DNA of 63,644 bases, counting the filler, from Folioceros fuciformis (Eukaryota): NCBI GenBank assembly GCA_049999805.1. It is 3 parts of 2 records of this genome, joined end to end, with 100 filler letters (N's around TTAATTAATTAA, not from the genome) between each part and the next. Parts side by side here need not be neighbours in the genome. Positions count along the whole stretch, not along the records: positions 51,344 to 63,644 come from JBNGIO010006348.1; 2 more parts are not named here. The stretch is one strand, 5' to 3'. The position numbers and the translations under genes are program-made. This document shows, one piece after another, positions 7,202 through 63,644 of the stretch. Each line of letters begins with the position of its first letter. Within the stretch, counting starts at the first letter, position 1. The notes beneath the pieces were generated by a model, which saw only the letters and a program-made list of their open reading frames with translations, was not told the origin of the DNA and ran no database searches.

Positions 7202-10200
7202 TCACGACTCTGAGTCCAATTGCCTCGCATACCCAGCGTTCTCCATTTCGCAAATGAGCTGTTCTAGCCTTGCGTACACAGCTTCCCTGTCGGGATGTTT
7301 TTTGTCCCCGACCAAAAAAGTGTGCACTACGCCGTCAATGTCTGTCCACCAGCTCTGGCCCGGCTCCTTCCAGGCCTTCATTCCAGTTCTCCTGGCCTGC
7401 ATCTCCTCTGCCTGTTCCCACATGTTGACGCGTTTGTAAATGTTTGACATCAACACATACGCGGCAGCATCGTTCGCGTCCAGCTTGACTGCTTCCTGAA
7501 AAGCATGAAGTCCCACCTCCACATTGCTCCACATTCGACAAGCACCCAGTAGGCTGTGCCAGACTGCTGAGTCGGGCCGCATAGGCATTGTGCTGAACAA
7601 ATCCAGTGCCTCGTCCAGTAGGCCTGCACGACCCAGGAGATCCATCATGGTTGTGTAGTGCCCAACTGTGGGACTGCAGCCGTAGTGTTTGGTCATGGCC
7701 TCGAAGTACTGTCTCCCATCCTTCACGAGACCGGCATGACTGCATACTGTTAGCACACTGAGGAAGGTGACGCCCGTTGGCTGTATGCCATCATCTCTCA
7801 TTCTGTGGAACAAGTCAAAGACCGCTTCACTGTCTCCTTGACGGCTGTAGCCTGCAATCAAGGCATTCCAGGCCACTACATCTCGATTGGCCAGTGCCTC
7901 GAACACTTGCTGTGCATGAAACATGCTCCCAGACTTTGCATACATATTTATCAAACTGATCGCTACAAGCACCTCAGACTGTAGCCCCTGTTGTGTGATC
8001 TTTGCATGAAGCTGCTTTCCCAGATGCAAAGCCGCCACGTTTGCACACGCCTGGAGGAGGCACACAAATGTCACAGCATCAGGTGCAACTACGGCTTCGT
8101 TTTGCATAGCTCTGTACAGACGAAATGCTTCGTGTCCCATACCCTGCTGGGCATAACCTCCAATCATGGTGTTCCACATTACCACATCTTTGTGAGGAAG
8201 CTTGTCAAACACGCCCTGAGCATCTTCCAAGTTGCCGCACTTGACATATCCTGCCATCAGAGCGGTCCATGTCACCACATTCTTTTTTCCAAGTCCGTCA
8301 AACACTCTTTGGGCGTCTTCCAAGCTGCCACACTTCGCATACATGTTCACCAGGCTGCCACCTACTTTCACATCAGTCTGAAGGCCTCGTTCTCCAATCT
8401 GTGTATGCAGCTGTTTCCCAGTCTCCAAAGCAGGTGCGCCTACAGTTGCACATGCCTGCAGGAGAGTTACAAATGTTACAGAATCAGGCACAGCAGTGCC
8501 TTCTTCTCGCATTTCATTGTAAACGTGAAGGGCTTTCTCTCCCATGCCCTGCTGAGCGTATCCTGCTATCAAGGTTGTCCACGTCACCACATTCTTGTCA
8601 CTAATTCCGTCAAACACTCTTTGGGCATCTTCTAAGCTGCCACATTTTGCATACATATCCACCAGACAGCTACAAACGAATAGATCAGGCTCAACCCCGC
8701 TGGCGAAGACATCAGCATGCAACTGCTGCCCAGATGTCAAGTCTCTTGCCCTTGCACAAGCTTGCAGGGCCGATGCAAAGATATGGCCATCTGGCTTCAC
8801 ACTTGACCTGCGCATGTGATGATACAGTTTTATGGCCTGGTTATCTTGTCCATGTTTAACATGTGCAGAGATTAGCGAAAACCAAATGAAGACGTCTGGC
8901 TTGGTGACCATACTGAACACGTCCATTGCTTCTTGCAAACTGTCAAGAGTAGCATACATTTGCAACATACAGTTGGACAAGAAGGTGTCCGACTTATACT
9001 GCCCTCTCATAATGAGAGCATGGACACAACGACCCAGAGCCAGATCCTTCTGCTGCCCGCATCTTTTCAACACGGTATGAAATAGGGATCGTGGAATATG
9101 GTGGTGTGCTTGTACCAAAACTCCTAGAGCCTCAACAGCCTCGACAAGGTGCCCCTGCTGACATAGTCTCCTCACCGTATCAGCGGTTACACTGATTTCG
9201 AATCCTGTAGGCCTCCGACAGTCATTATCATGTCGCTCATTCAAGTTGTTAGTACAACCCATCTGCTTATCCTCGGCTACAAGCTGCACATCTTTCTTCA
9301 TTTTCTGAATCAACCATTCCAGCATTGCATATATACCGTCACTCTCAGGATGCTTTGCATCCCCAACCAAAAAGCTGTGCACCACTCCGTCCATGTCTGT
9401 CCACCGGCTCTGGCCTGGCTCCTTCCATGCCCCAATACTTGCTCTCCTCTCCTGCATCTCCTGTGCCTGCTCCCACATCTTGGCACCCCAATATATGTTC
9501 GACATCAACATATAAGCTGCAGAGTCGTTTTTGTCTAGATTCACTGCTTCTTTGAAAGCATGAGTTCCCACCTCTACATTGCTCCACATTTGACAAGCAC
9601 CCAGTAGAGTGTGCCAAACTGCAGCATCAGGAAGCAAAGGCATTGACCTTACCAAAGCTAGAGCCGCGTCCAGTTGGCCTGCACGACCCAAGAGATCCAC
9701 CATGCATGTGTAGTGCTCCACGGTGGGAGAGATGCCATAGTGTCTGCTCATAGCCTCAAAGTACTCTTGCCCCATCTTCACTAGACCTGCATGACTGCAT
9801 ACTGTTAGCAGACCAACGAACGTGACGCCAGTTGGCTGAGTGCCATCCTCTCTCATTCTGTTAAACAAGTCAAAGACGACTTCAGTGTCTACCTGATGGC
9901 TGTAGCCAGCAATAAGTGCATTCCAGGCAACGACACCTCTTTCCGGCAATGCTTCAAAAACCTGCCGGGCGCGGACCATGCTCCCACACTTTGCATACAT
10001 ATTTACCAAACTGACAGCAACAGGCACATCAGCCTGAAGTCCTTGTTCGACAATCTGAGCATGGAGCTGCTTTCCAACATGCAGGGCTACGACATCTGCA
10101 CATGCCTGCAGGAGGCAGACAAATGTCACAGCATTCGGCACAACGATACCTTCTCCCTGCATTCTCCTGTACAGATGAAGGGCTTCCTGCCCCATGCCCT

Positions 10201-11632
10201 GCTGGGAATATCCTGCAATCATGGCATTCCACGTTGCGACGTCCTTGTGAGGGAGCCTGTCAAACACTTTCTGCGCGTCTTCCAAGCTGCCACACTTCAC
10301 AAATCCTGCTATCAGAGCATTGCACGTTGCCACATCCTTGTGAGTGAGTTTGTCAAACACTCTTTGAGCGTCTTCCAAGCTGCCACATTTGGCATACATG
10401 TCTACCAAGCTGCAGCCTACTACTACGTCATCCTGAAGTCCCCGTTCTCCAATTTTCGTGTGAAGCTGTTTCCCCTGTTCCAAAGCCATGCTTCCTACAC
10501 TGGCACAGGCCTGCAGGAGGCACACAAAAGTAACACAATTGGGTGCAGCAAGGCCGTCTTGTTGCATGGCATCGTAGAGCTGAAGGGCTTGTTGACCTTT
10601 ACCCTGCTGGGCATATCCTGCTATCAGAGCTGTCCACGTAACCACATTTTTGCGATCGAGTCCATCAAACACTCTCTGAGCTTCTTCCAAGCTGCCGCAC
10701 TTTGCATACATGTCCACCAATCCACTACCAACAAACACATCAGGTTCACCGCCAGTCGCCAACACATCTGCGTGCACCTGCTGCCCAGATTCCAAGTCTG
10801 CCCCCTTCGCACAAGCCTTAAGCGCTGCTACGAACACATGACCGTCGGGCTTCACACTTGACCTGCGCAGCCGATGGTACAATTGTATGGCCTGATCATC
10901 CTGTCCGTGTTCAACATGCGCAGAGATTATGGAAGACCACATGAAGGCATCTGGTTTACCAACCCCGGTAAACACGTCCATTGCTTCGTGCAAGCTGGCA
11001 TGAGTAGCATACATCCGAAGGATGTGGTTGCACAAGAACGTGTCCGACTCGTAGCCCCATTTCACAGCCAGAGCGTGGACCCGACGACCAAGAACCAGAT
11101 GCTTCTGACTCACACATCCTTGCAGCACAGTATACAAGAGAGATTGAGAAACATGATAGTCTGTCTCCACCAAAACTCCCAGACCCTCAACAGCCTCGCT
11201 AAACTGCCCCTGTTGACATAGATGGCTCACCGTATCAGCCGTTACGTCATTCTCGCATCCTGCAGGCCTGCGTAGTCCAAGATCGTTCCGCATTGTCCAG
11301 TTGGAAGTAGTGGCACGACGACCCATCCGCATATCCACAGCTGCCAGCTGCACATCCACTAAACATTTCCTGTCCCAGAGGGCCTCCTGGGACTCACAGC
11401 TATGCCGGAAAACGGCCTCGTCACATCTTGAAGTCAGACCAGCCAACCAATTTTCGTTGTTCTGCACCAGGAAACCCGTTGCCACCCGAGGCCATGTGCC
11501 CCTGTCTGTGGACGTAGGGCAAGGGGCCGAGCAGCCATGATCAGCACAAGCACCTCGTGACAATATGGAGACCCCCACACCCAGTTCCCCTACGCCAAGC
11601 CCTGCGCAAGCTGAACCAGGTGTCCAAATCAT
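7202..11632 (-). CDS. PLS-class PPR protein (organellar RNA-editing factor type) with two tandem PLS-E-E+ modules and no complete DYW domain
   Basis: Repeated motifs LVDMYAKCGSLEDAQ, VTWTALIAGY and VTFVCLLQAC; two E domains (HYTCMVDLLGRAG, HYTTMMDLLGRAG) and two PG boxes (KEPGQSRW, KEPGQSWW); single intronless ORF. Confidence 0.93.
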   Translation of the reverse strand: MIWTPGSACAGLGVGELGVGVSILSRGACADHGCSAPCPTSTDRGTWPRVATGFLVQNNENWLAGLTSRCDEAVFRHSCESQEALWDRKCLVDVQLAAVDMRMGRRATTSNWTMRNDLGLRRPAGCENDVTADTVSHLCQQGQFSEAVEGLGVLVETDYHVSQSLLYTVLQGCVSQKHLVLGRRVHALAVKWGYESDTFLCNHILRMYATHASLHEAMDVFTGVGKPDAFMWSSIISAHVEHGQDDQAIQLYHRLRRSSVKPDGHVFVAALKACAKGADLESGQQVHADVLATGGEPDVFVGSGLVDMYAKCGSLEEAQRVFDGLDRKNVVTWTALIAGYAQQGKGQQALQLYDAMQQDGLAAPNCVTFVCLLQACASVGSMALEQGKQLHTKIGERGLQDDVVVGCSLVDMYAKCGSLEDAQRVFDKLTHKDVATCNALIAGFVKCGSLEDAQKVFDRLPHKDVATWNAMIAGYSQQGMGQEALHLYRRMQGEGIVVPNAVTFVCLLQACADVVALHVGKQLHAQIVEQGLQADVPVAVSLVNMYAKCGSMVRARQVFEALPERGVVAWNALIAGYSHQVDTEVVFDLFNRMREDGTQPTGVTFVGLLTVCSHAGLVKMGQEYFEAMSRHYGISPTVEHYTCMVDLLGRAGQLDAALALVRSMPLLPDAAVWHTLLGACQMWSNVEVGTHAFKEAVNLDKNDSAAYMLMSNIYWGAKMWEQAQEMQERRASIGAWKEPGQSRWTDMDGVVHSFLVGDAKHPESDGIYAMLEWLIQKMKKDVQLVAEDKQMGCTNNLNERHDNDCRRPTGFEISVTADTVRRLCQQGHLVEAVEALGVLVQAHHHIPRSLFHTVLKRCGQQKDLALGRCVHALIMRGQYKSDTFLSNCMLQMYATLDSLQEAMDVFSMVTKPDVFIWFSLISAHVKHGQDNQAIKLYHHMRRSSVKPDGHIFASALQACARARDLTSGQQLHADVFASGVEPDLFVCSCLVDMYAKCGSLEDAQRVFDGISDKNVVTWTTLIAGYAQQGMGEKALHVYNEMREEGTAVPDSVTFVTLLQACATVGAPALETGKQLHTQIGERGLQTDVKVGGSLVNMYAKCGSLEDAQRVFDGLGKKNVVTWTALMAGYVKCGNLEDAQGVFDKLPHKDVVMWNTMIGGYAQQGMGHEAFRLYRAMQNEAVVAPDAVTFVCLLQACANVAALHLGKQLHAKITQQGLQSEVLVAISLINMYAKSGSMFHAQQVFEALANRDVVAWNALIAGYSRQGDSEAVFDLFHRMRDDGIQPTGVTFLSVLTVCSHAGLVKDGRQYFEAMTKHYGCSPTVGHYTTMMDLLGRAGLLDEALDLFSTMPMRPDSAVWHSLLGACRMWSNVEVGLHAFQEAVKLDANDAAAYVLMSNIYKRVNMWEQAEEMQARRTGMKAWKEPGQSWWTDIDGVVHTFLVGDKKHPDREAVYARLEQLICEMENAGYARQLDSES

Positions 11633-11879
11633 AGTGCCCACATTCTTTCACAGCGATATTCAAGGTTTCCATCCAGTGCACATATCTTCACGATACACAA
11701 ACTGCTGCTTCTCATGAACTGCACATGCACATGATGCAAGTGGGTTAAATGTGAAACATTCTGCCCCCTGAGCTTGGACAAACATTCTGCCACCTAAGGA
11801 TCTCAATCTTGGTCAATGACAGGCACAGGGAGCCGTATTAAAAATAAATTGATTATTGTCCACACTGTCGTGCACAGCA

Positions 11880-21353: not shown

Positions 21354-22229
21354 TTAATCGAAGCGCAAGCGCATATCTACGTCGTCGTCCGACTCTTCAG
21401 CTCACTCCGGCTTCAGATATTCCTTCACCTTGTCCGCCTGGGGAAACGAGTAGCCTGTCTCGATGGCTATAGCCAACACGTTCTTGTAGCTGTTGACGAA
21501 GAAGTGTGGTGCTGCCGCCAGCGTCGGGTAGTTAAGGCCCAGAGAAAGCGCTGACACTGTCGAGATTCCAGCAGCGAGCTTGTTCATCAAGTCATCTTCT
21601 GTCAGATCCAACACCGTAGGATCGAACACCGACCCGTTGTCGAAGATGCTCTTGACCACAAGCCCGTACGAGAAAGGACGGATTCCCAGCTTAGCCAACA
21701 ACGCTGCCTCGGAGGAGCCGACCTTGTCACCCTTCTTGATGAGCTCCACCGGGGCTATGATTTCCACAGTTCCCTTGTTAATCTTCGTGGGGATGTTGAG
21801 CACCTGGAAGAAGGAAGTCTGGGACGGATCCAGTCCCGTGTTCCCCGGAGGAACCACCACATCGATGGGTGCCACAAGACCCACACGGGCAGGTGCTCCT
21901 ACCTTGTACTTGGCAATCTCTTCCCTCACCTCCTTCAGGTCACCCTTGGTGAATATCAAACCAGCGTTACCTACCAGCAAAGGTATCAGATTCAAGATGG
22001 CTTCGTTACCCGTCTTCTCAGAGTGAATTCGAATGGTCCTCTTCATCATCGTGTTTTTCCCCATCAGGACCACGGACTCGGGCCTCAACCCCTGCCTGAT
22101 GCCCTGCAACTGGTTGGATCCGACATTGTCGGCGAGACAAATCAGGACCTGAGTGTACTGTTCCAACAGGTCGCACATCTTCCTGTCGTACGCCTGCTTC
22201 TTCTCCTGCTTGGTACCCTTGAACCCCAT
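21354..22229 (-). pseudogene. RPP0: 60S acidic ribosomal protein P0 (uL10) paralogue with deleted Ala-rich hinge and premature TGA (21402-21404) before a divergent acidic tail
   Basis: [11 protein letters not shown]...[13 protein letters not shown]...KVKEYLKPE* followed in frame by AEESDDDVDMRLRFD*; closely similar to the copy at 24785-25747. May instead be an expressed truncated variant. Confidence 0.75.
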
Positions 22230-22554
22230 GGTTACTCCCCGATCAGCTTCACCAACACCGCCAGCAGCTGTTACAGGCGACGTAGCACGACGACCGACGA
22301 CGAGACTACAGCAAGGAACCCGCACCAGGCCCAGCAAAATCCTGGAGTAGTAGAACAGCACAGCAAAATTCACGCGAGCTGCAGAACACACGGGAGATGA
22401 TCTCACCAAATTACTTGACATGCAGAGCACACGAAATCAATCAACTCCAAGAACCACACCTGACCTGTGCTCAAGGACCCCCAAAAGGGAAAACGCTCCA
22501 ATTCAGCAACGAAAGAGGGAAAGATGATACACACGCCTTGCGTTCCACAACAGT

Positions 22555-24784: not shown

Positions 24785-25747
24785 CTAATCGAATAGACTG
24801 AAACCCATATCCTCGTCCGACACTTCCTCAGGTTCCGCCTTTTCTTCTTCCTTCGCCGCCGCAGCAGCGGGTGCAGCAGCTGCCGATGTCTCCGCCGGAG
24901 CCGCGGCCACTGCAAATTTGCTTGGGTCCTTCAAGTACTCCTTCACCTTCTCCGCCTGAGGAAATGAGTACCCTGTCTCGATTGCGATGGCCAACACGTT
25001 CTTGTAGCTGTTCACGAAGAAGTGTGGTGCTGCTGCCAGCGTCGGATAGTTCAGACCCAGAGAAAGTGCTGCCACTGTCGAGATTCCAGCAGTGAGCTTG
25101 TTCATCAAGTCATCTTCTGTCAGATCCAACACCGCAGGATCGAACACCGACCCATTGTCGAAGATGCTCTGAACCACAAGCCCGTATGAGAAAGGACGGA
25201 TTCCCAGCTTGGCCAACAGCGCTGCCTCAGAAGACCCGACTTTGTCACCCTTCTTGATCAGCTCCACGGGGGCGATGATTTCCACAGTCCCCTTGTTAAT
25301 CTTCGTGGGAATGTTGAGCACCTGGAAGAAGGAAGTCTGGGAGGGATCCAGCCCAGTGTTTCCCGGAGGAACCACCACATCGATGGGTGCTACAAGACCC
25401 ACACGGGCAGGTGCTCCCACCTTGTACTTAGCAACCTCCTCCCTCACCTCCTTCAAATCACCCTTAGTGAAGATCAGACCAACATTACCCACCAGCAACG
25501 GAATCAAATTCAAAATAGTTAGGTTCTCGGTCTTCTCAGAGTGAAGACGAATGGTCCTCTTCATCATCGTGTTTTTCCCCATCAACACCACAGACTCAGG
25601 CCTCAACCCCTTCCTGATGGCCTGCAGCTGATTGGAGCCGACATTGTCAGCAGCACAAATCAGGACCTGATTATATTCCTCCAACAGGTCGCACATCTTC
25701 CTGTCGTAAGCCCCTTTCTTCTCCTTCTTGGTGCCCTTGAAACCCAT
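24785..25747 (-). CDS. RPP0: 60S acidic ribosomal protein P0 (uL10), intact
   Basis: Full-length with Ala-rich hinge and terminal [14 protein letters not shown]; probable 5'UTR intron with acceptor near 25753. Confidence 0.97.
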
Positions 25748-26073
25748 TGCTCCTGCAAATGACAAGGTACTAAAGTTAGCTTCAGTAGAATAGTGCGAAA
25801 CAGAGATATCATTCTATCTGTACATAGTGACTGATAACGGATTAGGAGGACCCGAAAACGCAGCACTACCTTCAAGAGTTTACCTGTTAGCCAGTTGTGC
25901 CTACAGCGTGGTCTAGCTAAAAAGCAAGCATAAGATACTCGGAAAGCTGAGCAACAAATCAAAACACTACCACACCTGGTTAGAAGGATCCTGGAAGGCC
26001 CTGGCAAACAGACGCTCCGCTTCACCGACAAAGGATACAAGATCAATTCCTCGAACTACGTACTGCAAGCAAC

Positions 26074-55004: not shown

Positions 55005-55310
55005 TTGTATGGTGTCCCAATCCTCCCTGAGTGTGTGTGCTGTCAGGCTAACGTCCCCAAGCGTATCGTTCTCTGGGGTCCCTATCCTCTTCGAGTGTGT
55101 GTGCTGTGAGGTTGGTGTCCCCGTCCCCGAGCCTATCGTCGTGTGATCTGTCAATCCTCGCCAAGTGTGTGCTTGTGAGGTTGCTGTCTCCTGGCCTAAC
55201 TTCGTCTGGTTTCCCAATTCTCGCCTAGTGTGTGCTTGTGAGGTCGCTGTACCGTAGCCTATCCTTGTCTGGTGTCCCAATCCTCGAGTGTGTGCCGTGA
55301 GGTTGCTGCC
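55005..55310. repeat. Imperfect tandem repeats (about 60-70 bp) upstream of the Roco-like gene
   Basis: Recurring TGGTGTCCCAATCCTC...GTGTGTGC(T)TGTGAGGTTG units. Confidence 0.65.
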
Positions 55311-55376
55311 CCTGCTGCACAACGGATGATACATACATCTAAGGTGCATGGATTGCGAAGCGCAGCTTAGCACAGC

Positions 55377-58300
55377 ATGGCGGAGGAGGAGGACTGTGAC
55401 TCTCGCGAGTTGCCGGATAAGCTGCAACAGCTGCTGGAAGATGTGGAACGCAATGCCTTATCAAAACTACCCTGCTTGCACGGAGAGAAGTACGGCGATT
55501 TTTTCAGAAGGGGAGCTTCAGCGAGGACGGATGGCAGGCGCTGGCGAGTGCGCAAGCGCGTATTGACGTCTATTGGCCAGTGCCACAGTCTCCGCGGCGG
55601 TCGGAAGATCCTGTCGATGTGGGAAATCGGCATTGCTCGGGAGGATAAATGCGCGGTTCTGTTGGGGGCCCTGGCTACCAACCCTTACCTTGAAGCCATT
55701 GATCTGGGTGGGTGCCAAGGTTTTGGAACGCTGGCGGGTTGCAAGGCCCTGGGCCAGCTTATTGCTTCCAGTGGCAGCTTGCGACGGCTGGAGGCACCCG
55801 AGATTGGCCTTGATGTCGCTGGACTTGGTGCCCCTGTCGAAGGCGTCAACGAGGATTCTGTCCTGGAGTATTTGGAGCGAGGCTGCAATAGAGTGGGAGA
55901 TGGTGAAAGGGCACAGCACGTGGTTCGCATGCTGGCCACCGCTTCCCGTCTCAATGCCCTGTATCTCTATGGGATCGGCATGGATGAGGCGGGTGCCCAG
56001 TGTATTGCAACCGCACTTCCGGTCTGCGCCTCGCTCCGGGAGATTTGTTTGGGTCGGCGTAAGACATGTGGGGATTCGGTACTGGGCAGCCTGGGGCCCT
56101 TGAGCACAGTGTTGAAACTAGCTTTCACCCGTGATGATGGTGATGTGCATGCGCCATATCTGGGGTCACCAAGCTGTCATTGTATACCCGGAACAGTGAG
56201 GAGCGAGGCCTGGCCGACGCGCTGGCCGGAATGTTGCGCACCAACGATTGTATCACAGAGCTTATCAACAACGTTTTTGCAGTCCAGTGCGGCTTAGACG
56301 TCTGGCGCCACAACTCCACCCTCTCCAATTTTCAGTTGTTTGGCTATCCCGAGTCGTCAAGTGAATTTTCGGTGTCGTTTCTGGAATGCAAATCATTATG
56401 CATCCTGATCTTGAACTGGAGTTACTGGCCCTCTTTGATGATAGTCCTGGTGCAGTCTTTGGAGAAAAATACAGCCTTGAATCAGCTCAACATTCTGCAA
56501 TGGTACGAACTCGAAGATAAGCTCTCCAGAGAGTCGATGCACTCCTTGCAAGGCAACACCACTTTGCAGAAGATACTCGTAGGGGACACAAACTGGGAGA
56601 GGGAGGGAAAGCAGGCCATCATCAACGCGACGTTGGCACGCACAGTTACTCACAGGGGCTACTGGCCTCCTCTTTTAGAGGGGCAAGAGGCTGTGAAGCG
56701 CAGGGTTGGGCGCCTTTTCCTGTGCGGTGCACTTCACGCAGGGAAGACTACTCTCCGCACCACGTTGATTGCCGCATGGCGCGCGTTGCAACCACACACA
56801 TCACATTGTGCAGGATCTGCATCACCCAAAGTTGGATTCGGGGAACAACTGTCTCTAGCTTGGAAACGTCCGTGGTTCGGTAATGTTTCACTGGCAGGAG
56901 CTGCATTACCCGATCAGGGGTGGACTGTCCCCAGAACGGAAGGCATAGAGATGGAGATGCTGCACAACGACTATGAGATGGAAGTTACCATCTGGGATCT
57001 GGCTGGGAAAGCTCAGTACCGAGCTCTGCAAGATTACTTATTCCGGAGCTTCAACCAGACATGTGTCTTCCTGTTGAGATCTAACCCACTTGATGCCTGC
57101 AATCCTGGCGAACGCCTTCCGTCTGAGAAAATGCTGCTGGACAAGTTCAGAAACAGCTTCAAGTTTTGGCTTAGATTCATCCACTCTAATTCTCGCAACG
57201 TGGGTTCCTGCTTGCTTCGGGTATGTGTGGTTGTCACTCATAAGGATGAGATGGAGCATCTGTACGCTGAATCGCCAGTCGGTCTGCAGCAACCAGTCGT
57301 GGATGAGTTAGCCAAGACTTTCGAGGAGATACCTATCAGGACAATGCCTGTCATCATGGATGGCCGATCTAAACAGACTGTTCAGCCCTTGCTAGAGCAG
57401 CTATTCCAGTCATTTCAAGAGCTTCTTACGCTTCCTCTGTTTTGGGTCTCGGAGGCATGCAACGGATGCAGTGCGAGTTTGACTCACTGGGTATCTCAGA
57501 ATCCGGCTCAGCCTCTGATGACCAGGGAGAGATGCAAAAAGCTGTTCATCACAGATGATGAGCAACGCGTTCAAGCAATTCTTGCCTATCAGCACAATGC
57601 AGGCCGGGTCATCTGGTTTCAAGATGTTGATGTTGTGGTGGTGAATCCACACTGGATCAGTCATTCGTTCCTGGGCCACCTCATTCACCTTCTAACGGGA
57701 CCATCGATGTCGGAGAGATCGCCAGACCGTGGATTTGTTGCCGAAAACCTGAAGGACATTTTGGCCCGGATTCTCATGTATATGCAGGCGGCCGATAGGA
57801 TTCGTGTTCAAGATCTGGTATCATTGATGACGAGACTACACCTGTGCTATCGAGATGGTGCGAATTCAAGGCTTAGATTCTTCGTTCCCTTCACCTTGGA
57901 CAATGCCAAAGGTACAGTTCTTCAAGGGAAACGACAGTTAGACTGGAAGGGAGGTGCGGCGTCCAAGTACAATTACGTTGGGAGGCGGCTACAATGTCGA
58001 GAGGAAAGAAAGACGTTTTTTGGTCCAGGCTGCTTTCCAAGATTCCAGGTACGTTGCCTTCTGAGCTGTCTCTTTTGTTAGTCATTTAGCCTCTCTTGCG
58101 TTTCATGACATGGCCATTGGTTGTGCATTGCAGGTCAAGTGACAACAGATCTTGTTCCATTGGCTTTGCGGAATGAAGTCTCAGCAATACAGTATTGCAT
58201 GTAACTTGATCACATTTAACTTTAGTGGTATGGACGTATTTTCGGAGAGGAGTGGGGATATTGAGGAGGAGACCGGGGATATTGGGGATCATGTTGACAC

Positions 58301-58715
58301 TTTGATGAGCTCGTTAAAGAGCAAAGACGAAAGTGTCCAGCTCCTCCAAAAGCGCATCGTTGCAAAACTGAGAGCATTTTGTGCTTCTCCTGAAAGTAGT
58401 CCTGGAGTTGAACTAGTAGAAGGGGTCATCAGAACTGAGTGTGTGGAGAAGCCTACTCTCTGTATTCTCCGACACAATCAACCGGTTCTCATACAGCATT
58501 TGATGAAGTGCTGTCTAGATCATCACAAAAGCCATGCAGGGCAGACTTCCTCTGGCTCGGATTCATCCGATGATCGATGGTGCTGGCCAGAATTCCCTGC
58601 CGTCTATCCCTTGTGTATGAGAGGGCCACGGATCTCTTAAGTAGCGATGAGGTGCAGTCTGCCTTGCAAGAGTATCAGCCCCGGTGCATGCAGAGAAGTA
58701 TCTTGCCACGGGGTG
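55377..58715 (+). pseudogene. TORNADO1-like LRR-ROC-COR (Roco) gene, apparently disrupted
   Basis: RI-type LRRs; ROC G1 GALHAGKTT, switch RTEGIE, G3 IWDLAGK, G4 VVTHKD; COR motifs VVVNPHW, FFVPFTL, YVGRRLQC, FPRFQV and CASPESSPGVELVEGVIRTECV; frame break near 56180-56297, in-frame TGA at 58140 after intron 58049-58133, further frame break near 58600. Confidence 0.82.
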
Positions 58716-58967
58716 AGAATTCGACCCTTAAATCATGCGATAGATTTTCTCATCGTCTTCTCTACCAGTTCTGGAGATTTATCCTTCAGAAATGTTGAGG
58801 ATGGCACAAGCTTCATCATAGCTTTCATGAGGGCCATCGTTAATCACTCTGAAGATCAAGATGCGTCGAGCATTCGAATAAGAGTGATTCGCAAGGTCAC
58901 CCAAATGCAGGGAGTGCAGTGTCCTCAGTTCCTCAACTCACTCACTGGAAAGCTATACTGGTCATAA
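58716..58967 (+). pseudogene. Caspase-like small subunit (p10) fragment, copy 1
   Basis: DFLIVFSTSSGDLSFRNVEDGTSFI...QCPQFLNSLTGKLYWS matches the caspase p10 pattern DFL...ST..G..SWR....GSWFI...QMP....LTKKLYF. Confidence 0.7.
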
Positions 58968-59873
58968 CCACCTCACTCCCTGCACATGTTTGGTTGGCTA
59001 GCGTGAGGAGCGTGTGGTCAGGGCCTGTAGTGCCTTCCATCAAGCGTCAGGTATCAAGTGTCTCTCTAGCTGCGTACTGTACTGCCTGGTTGTTGGTGTG
59101 TCGAACTGTTGCTGATACGACCTTCTCACGTCTCCTCCCTTTCTATGCCTGTTTGGCAAGAACGTCCACTCACAGGGTCCTTGTGTGGATGAACAGATGA
59201 TGGGACGTGGAGGCCATGCGTAGGGAGGGAAGATTGTGCTGTGTTCGTACACAGGTGGGAGGTGATTGTTTCAAGAATCAAGTCCAAGTTTGGGGTTTTG
59301 TGGTGTTTACATTGTTCTGTTCACCAGCGTGAGGATGTATGCTTCATCTTCGCTTCCCGACCAGCCAAAAGCTGGAATAGGTAGTCCCTCTCTGAAATCG
59401 CGTCCGGAGGTTGTTTTTTCATGTCACAGTGATAGCAGATCTTGTGATAATTGTATCAGGTTTGCTGGCACGTGTAAGGGCCTTGTCGGGTGTTTTGAGT
59501 TTGGTGTTTGTCGCCGTTTATCCGTGTTAGGAACACATACTTCTCTCTTCCTTTTTCAATAAAACCCGTCGTCGNNNNNNNNNNNNNNNNNNNNNNNNNN
59601 NNNNNNNNNNNNNNNNNNNNNNNNNNNNNNNNNNNNNNNNNNNNNNNNNNNNNNNNNNNNNNNNNNNNNNNNNNGATCCCATCTCATCACATAAAGTGCC
59701 ATAAAGCGAGCAAGTACTATGTCGACCACAGGCACGGCGGCTGCTATGTACTCGGCTGCTCGTAGGCAAGCCACTTCCAAGCAGGAAAAGGTTGTCCAGA
59801 GCATGAAGTCTGGAGAAGAGTGATCTCATCTCAGCTGGACCCGGATCCGAAACAGAGTGCAAAGACGGAACGT
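58716..59873 (+). repeat. Segmental duplication, copy 1 (copy 2 at 62370-63644, running to the window end)
   Basis: Highly similar sequence from AGAATTCGACCCTT through the 3' flank, with scattered substitutions and an N-gap in copy 1. Confidence 0.92.
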
Positions 59874-61039
59874 AAACCTTCGGTTCTGCTTTCGTGCTGC
59901 CTGCAGGAATTGCGAATTGAAGTGAAGTGGAGCAAGGGAAAGCAGAGGAAAAAAAACAAAGAGGATTCCGGTCCAGATCAGGGGAACTGATGACCTGTCC
60001 ACCCTAAAGCCTGCTCCCTGCTCTGCGTCGTGCGAGGGGTATGAGCCAGGCACGAATTCCGCAACTCAGACCGAAAGCAGAAAGCGGGTCGAGGCCGTGC
60101 GCATCATGAGAAGCGGTACAGAGTAACCAAAGTTCTGTCGTTACGAGGAAGGTGAAAATAATGCGATCAGAGCTACAAACAGGTCGTCTCTGGCTATTTC
60201 GCCCTCGACGGCAAGCTTCAAGGTGAGCGAGATCGAGCAAAGGCGGAAGCAATGGCCTCGGGGCAAGGAGCAGATTGTTGCGGGCTGTTTGCGCCGGCAA
60301 CGGAGTAGGAGGCTGTAACGGGAAGAGGTGGAGAAAATGGAGCCCGAAATGGGCTGGATGCCGAGCGCCCTCAGGGCAGAAAGCCGGAACACCGCAGGGT
60401 TGCCGCTAATCGTGGATGGGGGGCAAACAAGAACCCCAAAAAGGGTAAGGTTCCTGTATGGCCCGTGCTTGCCTAGTAGTTGGGCCGGTACGTAGTGTGG
60501 GAAGCGAAACATTAGCGCAGGAAAAGGCAGAGCGTGGCATGAAGAAATGTTTGCTTGGAAGGTGGTGTCATGTTTTCTCTCCATGCGCGCACGGAATTGA
60601 AGTAGCATAAATGTCCTCTTTGGCCTGGACCCTAAAATTCGCGGACGCGCCAAAGGAGACACGTCTAGAATGGCGTAGACCTTAGAAGCCCGAAGCAAGC
60701 CGTAAGCATGTATCGAAGGAGGCTGCTAATGCTACTGCCACAAATGTTTTCCGGTGCAGGTTCGGGTTCAGGTGCAGGTGTCTATGTCCAGGAGGGGGGC
60801 CACTCCTACTTCCTCCAGGCGCAGTCCACTGGCCCCTTGCAGTTCTGCAGCAATTTCCCAGGTCCTGTGCACAGCTTCATTGCTCGCTGTTCAGCAGCTT
60901 TGTAGGCACTGCTCTTCATCGTCCAGGCCGCTACACGAACCCTGGCCCGGCTGCTGTGGGTTTGTGCCGTAACGAGGATGCGTTCGTGAGCGGCCTAGTA
61001 TACTAGTACTGTCCATGCACCTGCGACAGCGGTCCCGGA

Positions 61040-61885
61040 ATGATGGCCACAACGAAGGCTGAAGCTTGTTTTCTTCTTATTGCCCGTCATTTGCTTTCAG
61101 GCGGGACCCAGCCAATTGGCCTGTGCACAAGGATTCTACGAGGAGCTCAGGCTAGCCCCATCTTAGGGAGTCGACCCCTCGCAAGTAAGGCCTCCAGGTG
61201 CAGCAGTGTACGGAACCCACCAATTCCACTTCTGGGAGGGGGTGTGGGTGGTAGGGATGGATTTTCTAGCGATGGTCGTTCCCAGGAGCAGGAACACTTG
61301 TGGCATCAATTTTTTCTGGACCCTACCATGTGGTGGGACGACAGACGAAATAAGAAGAGCTCCCGCTCTCCTGACTTCCGGCGAAAGGGGTCCAACGAAG
61401 TGCTGTGCTTAAGCAACATGTTTAAGCCAGATTGGGTTGATGAGCAGCTCATGTCCTTGGATATCCAGATGGGCCATGGTGCCTCCCCCTCCAAGTTCAG
61501 GTTTTGGGATAGGATTGAACCTGGGAGGCGTGCAGGATCAGAAATGGCGGTTGGTACGGCTGTTACCGTGAGCATGTTATGTCAGCAGGGGAAGCTTTTT
61601 GAGGCCGTTGGAGCCCTGGAATCTCTGGCGGAGGCGGACTCTGGTGTTTCTCAGTCTCTGTTCTACACTGTCCTAAAACTGTGTATAGCTAGAAAGGATT
61701 TGGTTTCGGGGCGACGGGTTCACGATCTCACTGACAAACTTGGGTATGAGTCGAGTCCATACTTGGGGAACCATATCTTGCGCATGTATGCTTGTGGAGG
61801 TAGGCTGCCGGAGGCTATGGGTGTGTTCACCAGGGTGGGCAACCCTGGTGAACACAACCATGGCCTCCTGCAGCACACTTCATAG
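61040..61885 (+). pseudogene. Truncated PPR gene: transit-peptide-like N-terminus, OSB/PTAC9-type PDF motif and first PLS PPR motifs
   Basis: WHQFFLDPTMWWDDRRNKKSSRSPDFRRK (PDF motif); TVSMLCQQG...LGNHILRMYACGG is homologous to the start of the PPR modules at about 11250 and 9190. Confidence 0.75.
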
Positions 61886-62621
61886 GAAGTTCATGCGATT
61901 GCAATGATGGTCAGCATGGAAGAAGGCAGAGATGGAGGATAGGTAGACAGAGGGCGGCTTCAAGCTCTCTTCCAGATGTTGAAATTCCATACAGATATCG
62001 TGGTGAACGGTCCTAAGGAAGGGAAATCAAGGCTGAAAGCCATTCTTAGGGTCCCTCGCCTAGCAAAAGATGAGTGCTTTCTGTTTTGCGTGAACGCCCA
62101 TGGTGGGACTGATGAAGACGGAAGACAGTATGTTTTTGCTCAGGTGAAGCAGGCAAGGCGGAGAAGCTTTATGTTGAAGAAGAAATTTGAATCCCATCCC
62201 TGAATGCGAGTATTTGGCAAACAAGCCTGAGGTGGTTGTCGTAAATGCTTGCCGAGGCACTGGCACTCTTGTCAGAAGCATGAACGCACAGGGGTTGAGC
62301 CCCGCCGGCCTTGCCACTACCAGCAAAGCCGAAGGGTCAGACGTTCAGGGAAGCCAGGGTCCCAGCAATAGAATTCGACCCTTGTATCACGCGATAGATT
62401 TTCTCATCGTCTTCTCTACCAGTTCTGGAGATTTATCCTTCAGAAATGTTGAGGATGGCACAAGCTTCATCATAGCTTTCATGAGGGCCATCATTAAACA
62501 CTCTGAAAATGAAGATGTGTCGAGCATTCTAACAAGAGTGATTCGCAAGGTCACCCAAATGCAGGGAGTGCAGTGTCCTCAGTTCCTCAGCTCACTCACT
62601 GGAAAGCTATACTGGTCTTAA
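61886..62621 (+). pseudogene. Caspase-like (peptidase C14A-type) p20+p10 domain, interrupted by a TAG and two apparent 1-nt deletions
   Basis: AIAMMVS...GRDGG*VDRGRLQALFQMLKF; DECFLFCVNAHG (His codon 62099); CEYLANKPEVVVVNACRG (Cys codon 62250); p10 DFLIVFSTSSGDLSFR...QCPQFLSSLTGKLYWS. Confidence 0.75.
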
Positions 62622-63644
62622 CCACTCCATTCCCTGCACATGCCTGGTTGGCTAGCGTGAGGAGCGTGTGATCAGGGCCTGTAGTGCCTTCCATCAAGCG
62701 TCAGGTATCAAGTGTCTCTCTAGCTGCATACTGTACTGCCTGTTTGTTGGTGTGTCGAACTGCTTCTGATACGACCTTCTCACGTCTCCTCCCTTTCTAT
62801 GCCTGTTTGGCAAGAACGTCCTCTCAAAGGGTCCTTGTGTGGATGAACAGATGATGGGACGTGGAGGCCATGCGTAGGGAGGGAAGATCGTGCTGTGTTC
62901 GTACACAGGTGGGAGGTGATTGTTTCAAGAAGCAAGTCCAAGTTTGGGGTCTTGTGGTGTTTACATTGTTCTGTTCACCAGCGTGAGGATGTATGCTTCA
63001 TCTTCTCTTCCCAACCAGCCAAAAGCTGGGATAGGTAGTCCCTCTCTGAAATCGCGTCCGGAGGGTGTGCTTTCATGTCACAGTGATAGCAGAGCTCGTG
63101 ATAATTGTATCAGGTTTGCAAGCACGTGAAGGGGCCTTGTCGGGTGTTTTGGGTTTGGTCTTGTCGCCGTCGTTTATCCTTGTTAGGAACACATTGTTCT
63201 CTCTCTTGCTTTTTCAATAAAACCCGTCGTCGTGCCCCTCGTCAAACTTGAATTTGCTCCCTGGAGCAGCCACATGACATCTTCACACGCAGCAACGCCC
63301 AGAGCAGGAGAAGCCCGGATCAGACGCCTCCGGCAAGCGCTGCCGCCTCACTTTCACCTGATCATCCAGTGCACAGTGTGTCAACAGCGGCGACTATGAC
63401 GCCTGCAATTAGGCACGCCCGCTGATCCCATCTCATCACATAAAGTGCCATAAAGCGAGCAAGTACTATGCCGACCACAGGCACGGTGGCTGCTATGTAC
63501 TCGGCGGCGGCGGCGTAGGCAAGCCACTTCCAAGCAGGAAAAGGTCGTCCAGAGCATGAAGTCTGGAGAAGAGTGATCTCATCTCAGCTGGACCCGGCAT
63601 CTCAGCTGGACCCGGATCCGAAACAGAGTGCAAAGACGGAACGT

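Follow-up and report, generated by a model that had tools for sequence, protein, structure and literature searches.

In the plant Folioceros fuciformis (assembly GCA_049999805.1), a Roco gene stands directly beside a segment of a caspase gene, which raises the question of whether the two were once parts of one protein or have met by chance. We examined this locus in a window of 63,644 nucleotides, the whole stretch of DNA that was analysed, along which all positions given here are counted. The reading that we favour, with a probability of roughly 0.7, is that the locus belongs to a plant Roco-caspase fusion family and is decaying, though transcribed. The features on which this reading is built are collected in Table 1.

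Table 1. Features of the Roco gene, the caspase copies and the segment between them
Feature	Position	Strand	Basis or remark
N-terminal region of Roco gene	55377..56139	+	frame 0 from ATG 55377; X1 contig 55255-55757 covers the start
Apparent reading-frame change, frame 0 to frame 2	56140..56165	+	three-frame translation; inside the repeat region
Main exon: further repeats, Roc, COR-A, start of COR-B	56144..58048	+	ORF, Pfam, atlas, tblastn
Intron, 85 nt, GT..AG	58049..58133	+	removed in X1
Last exon, first part: COR-B tail, then linker	58134..58715	+	frame 0; TGA 58140-58142, TAA 58638-58640
Donor-like site GTGAGA at junction	58713..58718	+	unused in the contigs seen
Caspase p10 copy A	58716..58967	+	in frame with COR-B tail; natural stop TAA 58965-58967; without p20
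Duplicated block A: p10 and 3' region	58716..59873	+	assembly gap 59575-59674
Intron, 146 nt, GT..AG, 3' region	59048..59193	+	joint 59047 to 59194, X1 only
PPR gene 5' fragment	61436..61846	+	within the intervening 3.17 kb
Palindrome (fold-back), 71 nt	61804..61874	.	blastn opposite-strand self-match, 87% over 71 nt
Caspase copy B, p20 and p10	61886..62621	+	tblastn of P0007; three-frame translation; Pfam
Duplicated block B	62370..63644	+	runs off the window end

Anatomy and transcription of the Roco gene

The Roco gene lies on the + strand, with its start codon at ATG 55377 in our ORF reading and a long ORF at 56144-58081. The long ORF carries the GTPase motifs G1 (GALHAGKT, 56726-56749), G3 (DLAGK, 56996-57010) and G4 (THKD, 57236-57247), and Pfam placed in it a Roc domain (E 8.7e-4, below the gathering score) and, at about 57527-57889, a COR-A domain (E 2.5e-6, likewise below the gathering score at 27.9 bits versus a cut-off of 35.3). 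In addition, the protein-language features of residues 185-635 matched Roc/COR-A clusters of a protein atlas with a top score of 0.97, and the ten best matches with a family assignment all fell into one family or clan. The Roc region proposed in the preliminary description, which had been made from the sequence by eye, is thus present, and the COR-A region probably is as well. Among PDB sequences, the Roc-COR exon retrieved only C. tepidum 3dpt (E 0.24) and no significant Roco match, and an AlphaFold model of this exon, built on a two-row alignment, was unusable (pLDDT 31). The sole long relative found for the Roc-COR region was R1flu_028445 of Riccia fluitans (hereafter P0001; 29% identity, E 6.1e-35), a protein with the architecture NB-ARC, LRR, Roc, COR and then an alpha/beta-hydrolase. 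By tblastn, its residues 772-1210 align to 56702-58054 (E 1.6e-40) and its residues 1235-1328 match 58236-58520 (E 1.7e-11). The gene had been called TORNADO1-like. Arabidopsis TORNADO1 likewise combines repeats, Roc and COR in a plant protein and is not known to have a protease domain; no TORNADO1-type protein was returned in the search for long relatives, the only one found being the Riccia protein, and orthology of the window gene to TORNADO1 is not supported.

The locus is transcribed and spliced. We take X1, a set of RNA-like contigs from one study, to be RNA on the sole ground that it shows two GT..AG splices (58049-58133 and 59048-59193), which were seen in X1 only and are absent from the DNA runs. 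The depth profile of X1 and the parts that it leaves uncovered (e.g. 63092-63644) were excluded from the evidence, and a prokaryote-type promoter and terminator scan was set aside as irrelevant to a plant gene. At the first intron, 16 loose letters before 58127 in record 6 of X1 equal 58026-58041, the record also has one differing letter, which fits a join of 58048 to 58134, and the DNA-run contig X3 58045-58546 reads through the intron. The joint from 59047 to 59194 has a depth of 217 in X1 and is absent from X3 and from X2, the DNA contigs of another study. In the same organism, the Roco and caspase parts each have further paralogues, as loose ends in both the DNA and the RNA runs show.

The N-terminal region did not bear out the description of the gene as carrying leucine-rich repeats: Pfam found no LRR family at E <= 1 in either of the two N-terminal ORFs, and the repeats have a weak 57-residue periodicity (lag 57, z 2.9) in one of the two segments. 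By eye, 55377-56139 resembles ribonuclease-inhibitor-type repeats. Leucine-rich repeats are frequent among Roco proteins but do not define them. The change of frame at 56140-56165 may reflect either a frameshift or an intron that went unrecognised. Around 56140, 230 frame-compatible GT..AG pairs are possible, among which the sequence alone cannot choose, and the contigs of the sequencing runs list no indel or joint at 56140-56165. None of the 230 pairs was compelling as an intron that would rescue the frame; the one that looks best, 56059 to 56282, conflicts with an X1 contig colinear over 56227-56616.

Downstream of the first intron, homology of the COR-B tail to its relatives runs in frame 0 and ends near 58510. 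The tail ORF (58143-58640) reached shuffle z values of 15.0 and 24.6 against relatives, the value of 15 being that for P0007, a caspase ORF described below. Pfam found no COR-B match in this ORF, and the aligned region of P0001 overlaps a weak Pfam COR-B match of that protein (residues 1198-1284, E 5e-4); the label COR-B for the shared tail therefore depends on a chain through this weak match. Searched against PDB sequences, a profile of four COR-tail sequences found no Roco protein. The COR-like sequence of the preliminary description had been read in frame 2, in a stretch containing RATDLL (YERATDLLSSDEV..., 58574-58714), and this assignment falls: its z values are 1.5 against P0007 and -0.1 against P0001, with 19 of 200 and 106 of 200 shuffles, respectively, scoring as high.

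The junction and the duplicated blocks

At 58716 the Roco gene abuts caspase p10 copy A, both being on the + strand, as had been described. The p10 ORF (58641-58967) matches Peptidase_C14 in Pfam (E 3.6e-9, 37.1 bits versus a cut-off of 21.4) over profile positions 158-233 of 233. The junction is also the exact start of a duplicated block, again as described: 58716-59574 and 62370-63232 are 94.1% identical over 864 columns and, after the N gap at 59575-59674, 59675-59873 and 63424-63644 are 87.8% identical up to the window end. The p10 segment had been held to be out of frame as assembled, which proved incorrect. The tail ORF and the p10 ORF share one frame and are parted by a lone TAA (58638-58640); indeed, a single frame runs through from the acceptor (58134) to the p10 stop (58967), and only TGA 58140 and this TAA break it.

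A misjoining of haplotypes or paralogues near the N gap could in principle have created a false Roco-p10 adjacency, given that a 100-N gap lies inside block A and that the two blocks are 94% alike. However, this gap is 860 nt downstream of the junction, and two contigs from separate studies, X1 58517-58909 and X2 58523-58800, cross 58716 with no differing letters and no gaps. Because contigs from two studies cross the junction, we do not regard it as an assembly artefact, an explanation that we consider extremely improbable. We also considered, but did not adopt, 58713-61885 as an intron (GT 58713, AG 61885, phase-compatible in frame 0). No joint is listed at the donor-like GTGAGA (58713-58718), through which X1 contig 58517-58909 reads, and the alternative acceptor 61873 for the same donor runs into a TAG. 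Among the contigs of the sequencing runs compared, none joins 58712 to 61886.

The p20 portion is missing from copy A, and tblastn located it at 61886-62137 only, within copy B. The preliminary description had spoken of p20 as deleted here; its absence stands, and deletion is one possible history of it. Copy B has both NAHGG (62093-62107, in p20) and NACRG (62244-62258), and it bears two stops, TAG 61940-61942 and TGA 62175-62177, with a change of frame between them at about 62140-62155. No His-Cys dyad was found in an intact frame at the locus, as copy A is without p20 and copy B keeps the motifs in a broken frame. The stretch 62178-62621 matches C14 in Pfam (E 1.7e-18, 67.6 bits versus a cut-off of 21.4); the p20 piece 61943-62203 has no Pfam match by itself but aligns to P0007 with z 22.7. 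Between the two p10 copies, 12 of 252 nt differ (nine nonsynonymous, three synonymous), and by these counts the copies diverge at a neutral ratio.

The 3.17 kb between the junction and copy B opens with duplicated p10 and 3' sequence of the gene itself, holds a PPR 5' fragment and has the fold-back palindrome last. Residues 144-280 of ORF 61007-61885 share 54% identity with the PPR N-terminus at 11359-10952, and the palindrome ends the PPR fragment 12 nt before copy B. No Helitron or target-site-duplication signatures were seen by eye at either end of the segment.

These observations bear on the possibility that the locus still works, either as a Roco gene with a p10-only tail that acts as a decoy or dominant-negative for caspase paralogues, or as a Roco gene with a regulatory 3' region. 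Transcription and splicing, the in-frame p10 and the further Roco and caspase paralogues in the loose ends of the runs would all suit such a gene. Nevertheless, in the contigs of the runs, TAA 58638 comes ahead of p10 and TGA 58140 comes after the observed splice; the 9:3 ratio of changes between the p10 copies is neutral; and the frame is probably broken near 56140. We therefore hold a working gene to be very unlikely. No uninterrupted polypeptide with COR and caspase-type domains is encoded at the locus (TGA 58140, TAA 58638, p20 missing) which, although transcribed and spliced, is a decayed gene and not a working system.

Relatives with a COR tail and a caspase domain

In each of two ORFs from public assemblies, a homologue of the window's post-COR-A tail is followed in the same frame by a linker and an entire caspase domain; both ORFs start inside COR-B. 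In P0007 (450 aa), residues 14-125 align to the tail ORF (BLASTP E 8e-10) and the caspase domain occupies residues 187-425 (Pfam E 8.3e-34); in P0162 (427 aa), residues 6-88 align to the tail ORF (BLASTP E 2e-12) and the caspase domain occupies residues 181-421. The two are 35% identical over 428 columns. P0007 retains NAHGG and NACRG in an open frame, as well as the His-Cys dyad and the S1-pocket arginines; P0162 has ISGHG where the Cys motif is expected. The caspase fold was tested on P0007 only, with an alignment that included animal caspases: the model has pLDDT > 90 over most of residues 190-430 and low confidence in the N-terminal 180 residues, and its top PDB matches in Foldseek are caspase-7, -3 and -6 (E ~1e-20, target-normalised TM 0.83-0.87). 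Residues 1-186 of P0007 gave no usable match in the protein atlas. No Roc was seen in the P0007 and P0162 ORFs, and a search for long proteins (789-2250 aa) related to P0007 found none, which is weak evidence.

The locus had been proposed as the remnant of a Roco-caspase fusion. The two ORFs, which pair the tail with a complete caspase, give this proposal real support. Chance insertion had been the expectation should no Roco paralogue end in a C14 domain, and the proposal survives this check, as P0007 and P0162 carry the COR tail and the caspase domain together.

In a quick tree search, in which only 49% of the retained columns are occupied in the window row, the window caspase grouped with P0007, P0162, two transcripts of the hornwort Nothoceros and four unnamed proteins in a 10-row clade (SH-aLRT 96), with every named animal caspase outside it. 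The nearest named relatives of the window caspase sequence are animal caspases, and no metacaspases appeared among the named matches or PDB rows shown. The clade members P0018, P0092, P0100, P0037, P0027, P0023 and P0050 have no COR tail in the ORFs examined. Among the 160 proteins compared, the tail matched P0007 only; P0162 came from a later search.

We can now weigh the chance juxtaposition, in which a stand-alone caspase was partly duplicated and p10 with its 3' block came by chance to lie at the 3' end of an unrelated Roco gene without any caspase domain in its past. Such an origin would agree with a junction lying exactly at the duplication breakpoint, in a mosaic region that also includes a PPR fragment and a palindrome, and with the lack of Roco sequence directly upstream of copy B. 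It would also agree with the scarcity of the tail, which most members of the caspase clade lack in the ORFs examined and which matched, among 160 proteins, P0007 alone before P0162 was added. On the other hand, it leaves unexplained that two full-caspase ORFs of the same clade have, in their N-terminal part, a homologue of the tail of this very Roco gene, that p10 is in frame with the COR-B tail, and that the break falls at a linker length typical of P0007 and P0162, with copy B starting at the matching point. On balance, we consider a chance meeting unlikely.

A probable split Roco-caspase gene and its known counterparts

Homology of copy B to P0007 begins at 61886, which corresponds to P0007 residue 185 (tblastn), and 58715 and 61886 are both codon boundaries; the chance of each such in-frame agreement is one in three. 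If 58715 were joined to 61886, the linker would be about 69 codons long; the linkers of P0007 and P0162 measure about 60 and about 92, respectively. Copy B takes up, codon to codon, at the point where the Roco part breaks off; the 3.17 kb rearrangement therefore probably split what had been a single Roco-caspase gene.

What the data show directly is the anatomy, the junction, transcription with splicing, the lesions and the ORFs elsewhere that unite a COR tail with a caspase; an intact ancestral gene, an order of events and a mechanism of sensor, switch and protease are what we infer. The ancestral gene would have encoded N-terminal repeats, Roc, COR-A, COR-B, a linker of about 60-90 residues and a complete p20 and p10 in one polypeptide. 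If such a protein worked as other Roco proteins and initiator caspases do, the repeat region would have sensed a ligand, the Roc-COR module would have altered its dimer state with GTP, and the caspase domains would have been brought together and thereby activated. The next step, REARRANGEMENT, would be the rearrangement of about 3.17 kb (58716-61885) between the linker and p20, the outline of which is seen in the assembly and the history of which is our reconstruction. We favour one templated insertion, by replication template switching, into the once-intact gene, under which the p20-p10 at 61886-62621 would be the gene's original caspase, displaced. Alternatively, a tandem duplication may have been followed by loss of the first p20; since the window ends inside block B, the two histories cannot be separated. 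Both halves have since decayed: the Roco part carries the stops TGA 58140 and TAA 58638 and, near 56140, probably a frameshift, while copy B carries TAG 61940, its frame change and TGA 62175. A role of the locus in immunity or cell death is something that we only infer.

The locus itself is a fossil, and its value lies in pointing to a family. We put it at even odds that plants of the hornwort lineage keep active single-chain receptors made of a repeat sensor, Roc-COR and a true caspase-type protease, of which this locus is a dead member. If such an active family is real, some land plants would have caspase-type executioners wired to a GTPase and not to an apoptosome or inflammasome, and this would offer a testable entry to whether such executioners were distributed before the split of animals and plants or transferred between lineages. 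Intact members, if they exist, would make a third coupling of sensing to proteolytic death in a plant lineage, beside NLR resistosomes and metacaspases.

Plant metacaspases (C14B) are clan CD cysteine proteases; unlike them, the window domain has a contiguous p20-p10 layout, an (N)ACRG motif and animal caspases as its best named matches. Plants are commonly said to lack caspases and to use metacaspases instead, as stated, for example, in the abstract of PMC12521494. Like the window gene, Riccia P0001 is a plant Roco protein, and it too has a C-terminal enzyme domain; it ends, however, in a hydrolase and not a caspase, and its NB-ARC is missing in the window gene. Animal Roco proteins (DAPK1, LRRK1/2) similarly join the Roc-COR switch to cell-death signalling modules in eukaryotes, and the atlas contains Roc-COR clusters from sponges and molluscs that carry CARD or Death domains. 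There, caspases are recruited through adaptors, or kinases are used, whereas here the caspase domain is fused to COR itself.

The preliminary description had presented the architecture as one not known from plants. In open-access full texts and bioRxiv preprints, supplements excluded, we found no report of a Roco-caspase or of a hornwort or plant caspase, so that this much stands; a Roc-COR module with a caspase-like protease as such is known from bacteria. The two relatives with the same join in one frame point to a plant Roco-caspase family that we did not find described. According to Kaur, Iyer, Burroughs and Aravind (eLife 2021, PMC8195603), bacterial proteins with LRR, AP-GTPase (Roc) and COR carry C-terminal effectors that include caspase domains. 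As reconstructed, the window gene shares with these prokaryotic proteins the module order of repeats, Roc, COR and a C-terminal protease, and the predicted logic of sensor, switch and executioner. In contrast to them, it is a nuclear plant gene with spliceosomal introns, it is broken, and its protease is nearest to animal caspases. A gasdermin-cleaving protease of Runella zeae, named Roc-COR-CHAT, likewise has Roc-COR fused to a caspase-like protease, and its protease activity was demonstrated by experiment according to Johnson et al. (2021, bioRxiv 10.1101/2021.06.07.447441); unlike in the window gene, that protease is of the CHAT type, bacterial, and has its gasdermin substrate encoded next door. 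Intact full-length plant members, should there be any, would form a eukaryotic counterpart to these bacterial Roc-COR-protease immune proteins.

Setting and reading of the Roco gene

The DNA of the window is plant-like and nuclear, and its ORFs, read by eye, include apparent genes for E-type PPR proteins, a lectin receptor kinase, an RNA-dependent RNA polymerase and the ribosomal protein P0. By eye, a single open frame of 1481 codons at 7202-11647 (-) holds two tandem PPR units with near-alike N-termini and no stop between them. Uninterrupted P0-like ORFs lie at 21402-22436 (-) and 24785-25813 (-), ~3.4 kb apart, the former having no acidic C-terminal tail inside the ORF.

Features of the candidate Roco-caspase gene and of the second caspase copy
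Feature	Position	Strand	Evidence
Roco gene start	ATG 55377	+	ORF reading
Main ORF of Roco gene	56144-58081	+	GTPase motifs GALHAGKT, DLAGK, THKD
Caspase p10, copy A	starts 58716	+	Pfam C14 E 3.6e-9
Caspase copy B	61886-62621	+	both p20 (NAHGG) and p10 (NACRG)

Pfam matches of the Roco gene to Roc (E 8.7e-4) and COR-A (E 2.5e-6) were both below gathering scores. By protein-language features, residues 185-635 resemble Roc/COR-A clusters (top score 0.97), and the ten best family-bearing matches of this region all have a family or clan in common. The sole long sequence relative found was the Riccia fluitans protein P0001 (29% identity, E 6.1e-35), with the Pfam order NB-ARC, LRR, Roc, COR-B and alpha/beta-hydrolase, most matches being below gathering scores; from these, P0001 (1704 aa) looks like an NLR/Roco hybrid with a C-terminal enzyme tail. 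The preliminary description had read the gene as a TORNADO1-like LRR-ROC-COR protein. The LRR label was not confirmed, no LRR family matching at E <= 1 in Pfam, and the putative repeat region has a weak 57-residue periodicity and nothing stronger; orthology to TORNADO1 was not supported by any result of our analysis. In three-frame translation the reading frame switches near 56140, which could be either a frameshift or an intron. Just upstream of the ATG, at 55010-55308, lies a diverged tandem repeat (unit ~63-64 nt, 73-79% identity).

A transcribed Roco-p10 junction

The caspase p10 indeed abuts the Roco gene where the duplicated block begins, as initially noticed, position 58716 serving as both p10 start and first base of the block that is repeated at 62370. 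The two blocks are 94.1% identical over 864 columns and, beyond a gap of 100 N, 87.8% identical up to the window end. We aligned contigs from three sequencing runs of one organism to the window. The junction is bridged by a contig of run X1 (study P1; 58517-58909) and one of run X2 (study P2; 58523-58800) without any difference, and no insertions or deletions were listed anywhere in the aligned contigs of the three runs. As contigs from two studies cross 58716 unchanged, the Roco-p10 adjacency is genuine. An EcoRI site (GAATTC) occupies 58717-58722, where the duplicated block starts, and recurs 125 nt upstream at 58590-58595, which is probably a coincidence.

The last exon, which extends from its acceptor (58134) to the natural p10 stop (58965-58967), forms one frame (frame 0), interrupted by two nonsense codons alone, TGA 58140 and TAA 58638. 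The p10 thus shares the frame of the putative COR-B tail and is not, as first described, out of frame as assembled. Demonstrable homology to relatives in this exon is in frame 0 and ends near 58510; the stretch formerly taken as COR-like, YERATDLLSSDEV..., is read in frame 2 and does not significantly resemble P0007, an unnamed ORF discussed below (z 1.5), or P0001 (z -0.1).

Run X1 behaves as RNA. A GT..AG joint, 59047 to 59194, is present in X1 alone, and in one X1 contig 16 loose letters ahead of 58127 equal 58026-58041, which together with a single differing letter is consistent with the splicing out of 58049-58133 as an 85-nt GT..AG intron. This intron is read through unspliced in a contig of the DNA run X3 (58045-58546). 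The gene is therefore transcribed and spliced, and its transcript continues across p10 copy A and into the 3' part of the duplicated block.

Relatives joining a putative COR-B tail to a caspase

With 62178-62621 as the caspase query, HMMER was run exhaustively against 1.84 billion representatives; 170 proteins matched at E <= 1e-3, of which 5 reached E <= 1e-10 and none reached E <= 1e-30. Organism names were attached to 11 of 30 examined clusters, 9 of them from animals and 2 being Nothoceros aenigmaticus (hornwort) transcripts; 2 others were labelled just 'hypothetical protein' (JGI/IMG), and the remaining 17 were nameless. The match of P0007 (450 aa) spans almost all of the query. The first 125 residues of P0007 align to the COR-B-tail ORF of the window (BLASTP E 8e-10; phmmer E 1.1e-6), and none of the other proteins in the set, 160 at that stage, matched this tail. 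A further search from P0007 found a second unnamed ORF, P0162 (427 aa; 35% identical over 428 columns), residues 6-88 of which align to the same tail ORF (E 2e-12). Both run from tail through linker to a complete caspase domain in one ORF. P0007 retains both His and Cys motifs; P0162 keeps the His motif (GHGG), but ISGHG stands where relatives have the Cys motif NACRG, which makes P0162 a possible pseudo-protease within the family. The P0007 structural model, confident across most of the caspase domain and of low confidence in its N-terminal part, resembles caspase-7, -3 and -6 (target-normalised TM 0.83-0.87). Another caspase match, P0043 (507 aa), aligns in its N-terminal part to the LRR region of P0001 (phmmer E 2.6e-5), by sequence a separate LRR plus caspase architecture.

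A quick maximum-likelihood tree comprised 51 rows, namely copy B and 50 of roughly 190 collected proteins (mostly single-stretch matches over most of the query, organism-named members and the nearest relatives of P0007 and P0162). Copy B falls in a 10-row clade (SH-aLRT 96) whose members include P0007, P0162, both hornwort transcripts and 4 unnamed proteins, all named animal caspases lying outside it.

By the preliminary description's own test, the fusion idea would fall if no relative of the Roco gene ended in a C14 domain; two ORFs do link the gene's tail to a caspase. The Roco-caspase fusion is thus supported by independent sequences for COR-B tail plus caspase, Roc and COR-A lying outside the P0007 and P0162 evidence. 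Overall, the preliminary observation largely stands, without its COR-like stretch at the junction, its frame break and its LRR label.

History of the locus and known systems

Copy B carries lesions of its own (TAG 61940, a frame change at ~62140-62155, TGA 62175). Between the p10 of copies A and B, 12 of 252 nt differ (9 nonsynonymous, 3 synonymous), about a neutral ratio. Directly upstream of copy B lies a 5' fragment of a PPR gene, its protein 54% identical to the PPR at 11359-10952, terminated by a 71-nt palindrome. Contig depth summed over DNA runs reaches 190-385 at 61358-61935 vs roughly 5-50 in most other bins, probably as the PPR fragment shares words with many genomic copies. Loose contig ends at 55972, 56587, 56603 and 62188 depart from the window into similar sequence, which points to further paralogues of both Roco and caspase parts in the same organism.

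The window geometry fits a single ancestral gene, because the Roco part stops at 58715 and copy B homology to P0007 begins at nt 61886 (P0007 residue 185), both codon boundaries; joining them would leave a linker of ~69 codons, vs ~60 in P0007 and ~92 in P0162; and the intervening 3.17 kb opens with a copy of the p10 and 3' region of this gene and closes with a foreign gene fragment and a fold-back. The favoured reading of the 3.17 kb is a templated insertion. Duplication followed by p20 deletion is a possible alternative history, the window ending inside block B. Today the locus is a transcribed fossil. If intact members work as Roco proteins and initiator caspases are known to, their repeats would sense a ligand, GTP would control Roc-COR dimerisation, and proximity would activate the caspase domains.

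Literature searches of open-access articles in full text and of bioRxiv preprints listed neither a Roco-caspase from plants or other eukaryotes nor a caspase from hornworts. In bacteria, PMC8195603 describes LRR-Roc-COR proteins that carry caspase domains at the C-terminus, and a Runella gasdermin protease is named Roc-COR-CHAT in bioRxiv 10.1101/2021.06.07.447441. Bacteria already provide this kind of architecture, and the Roco-caspase architecture here is its eukaryotic variant.
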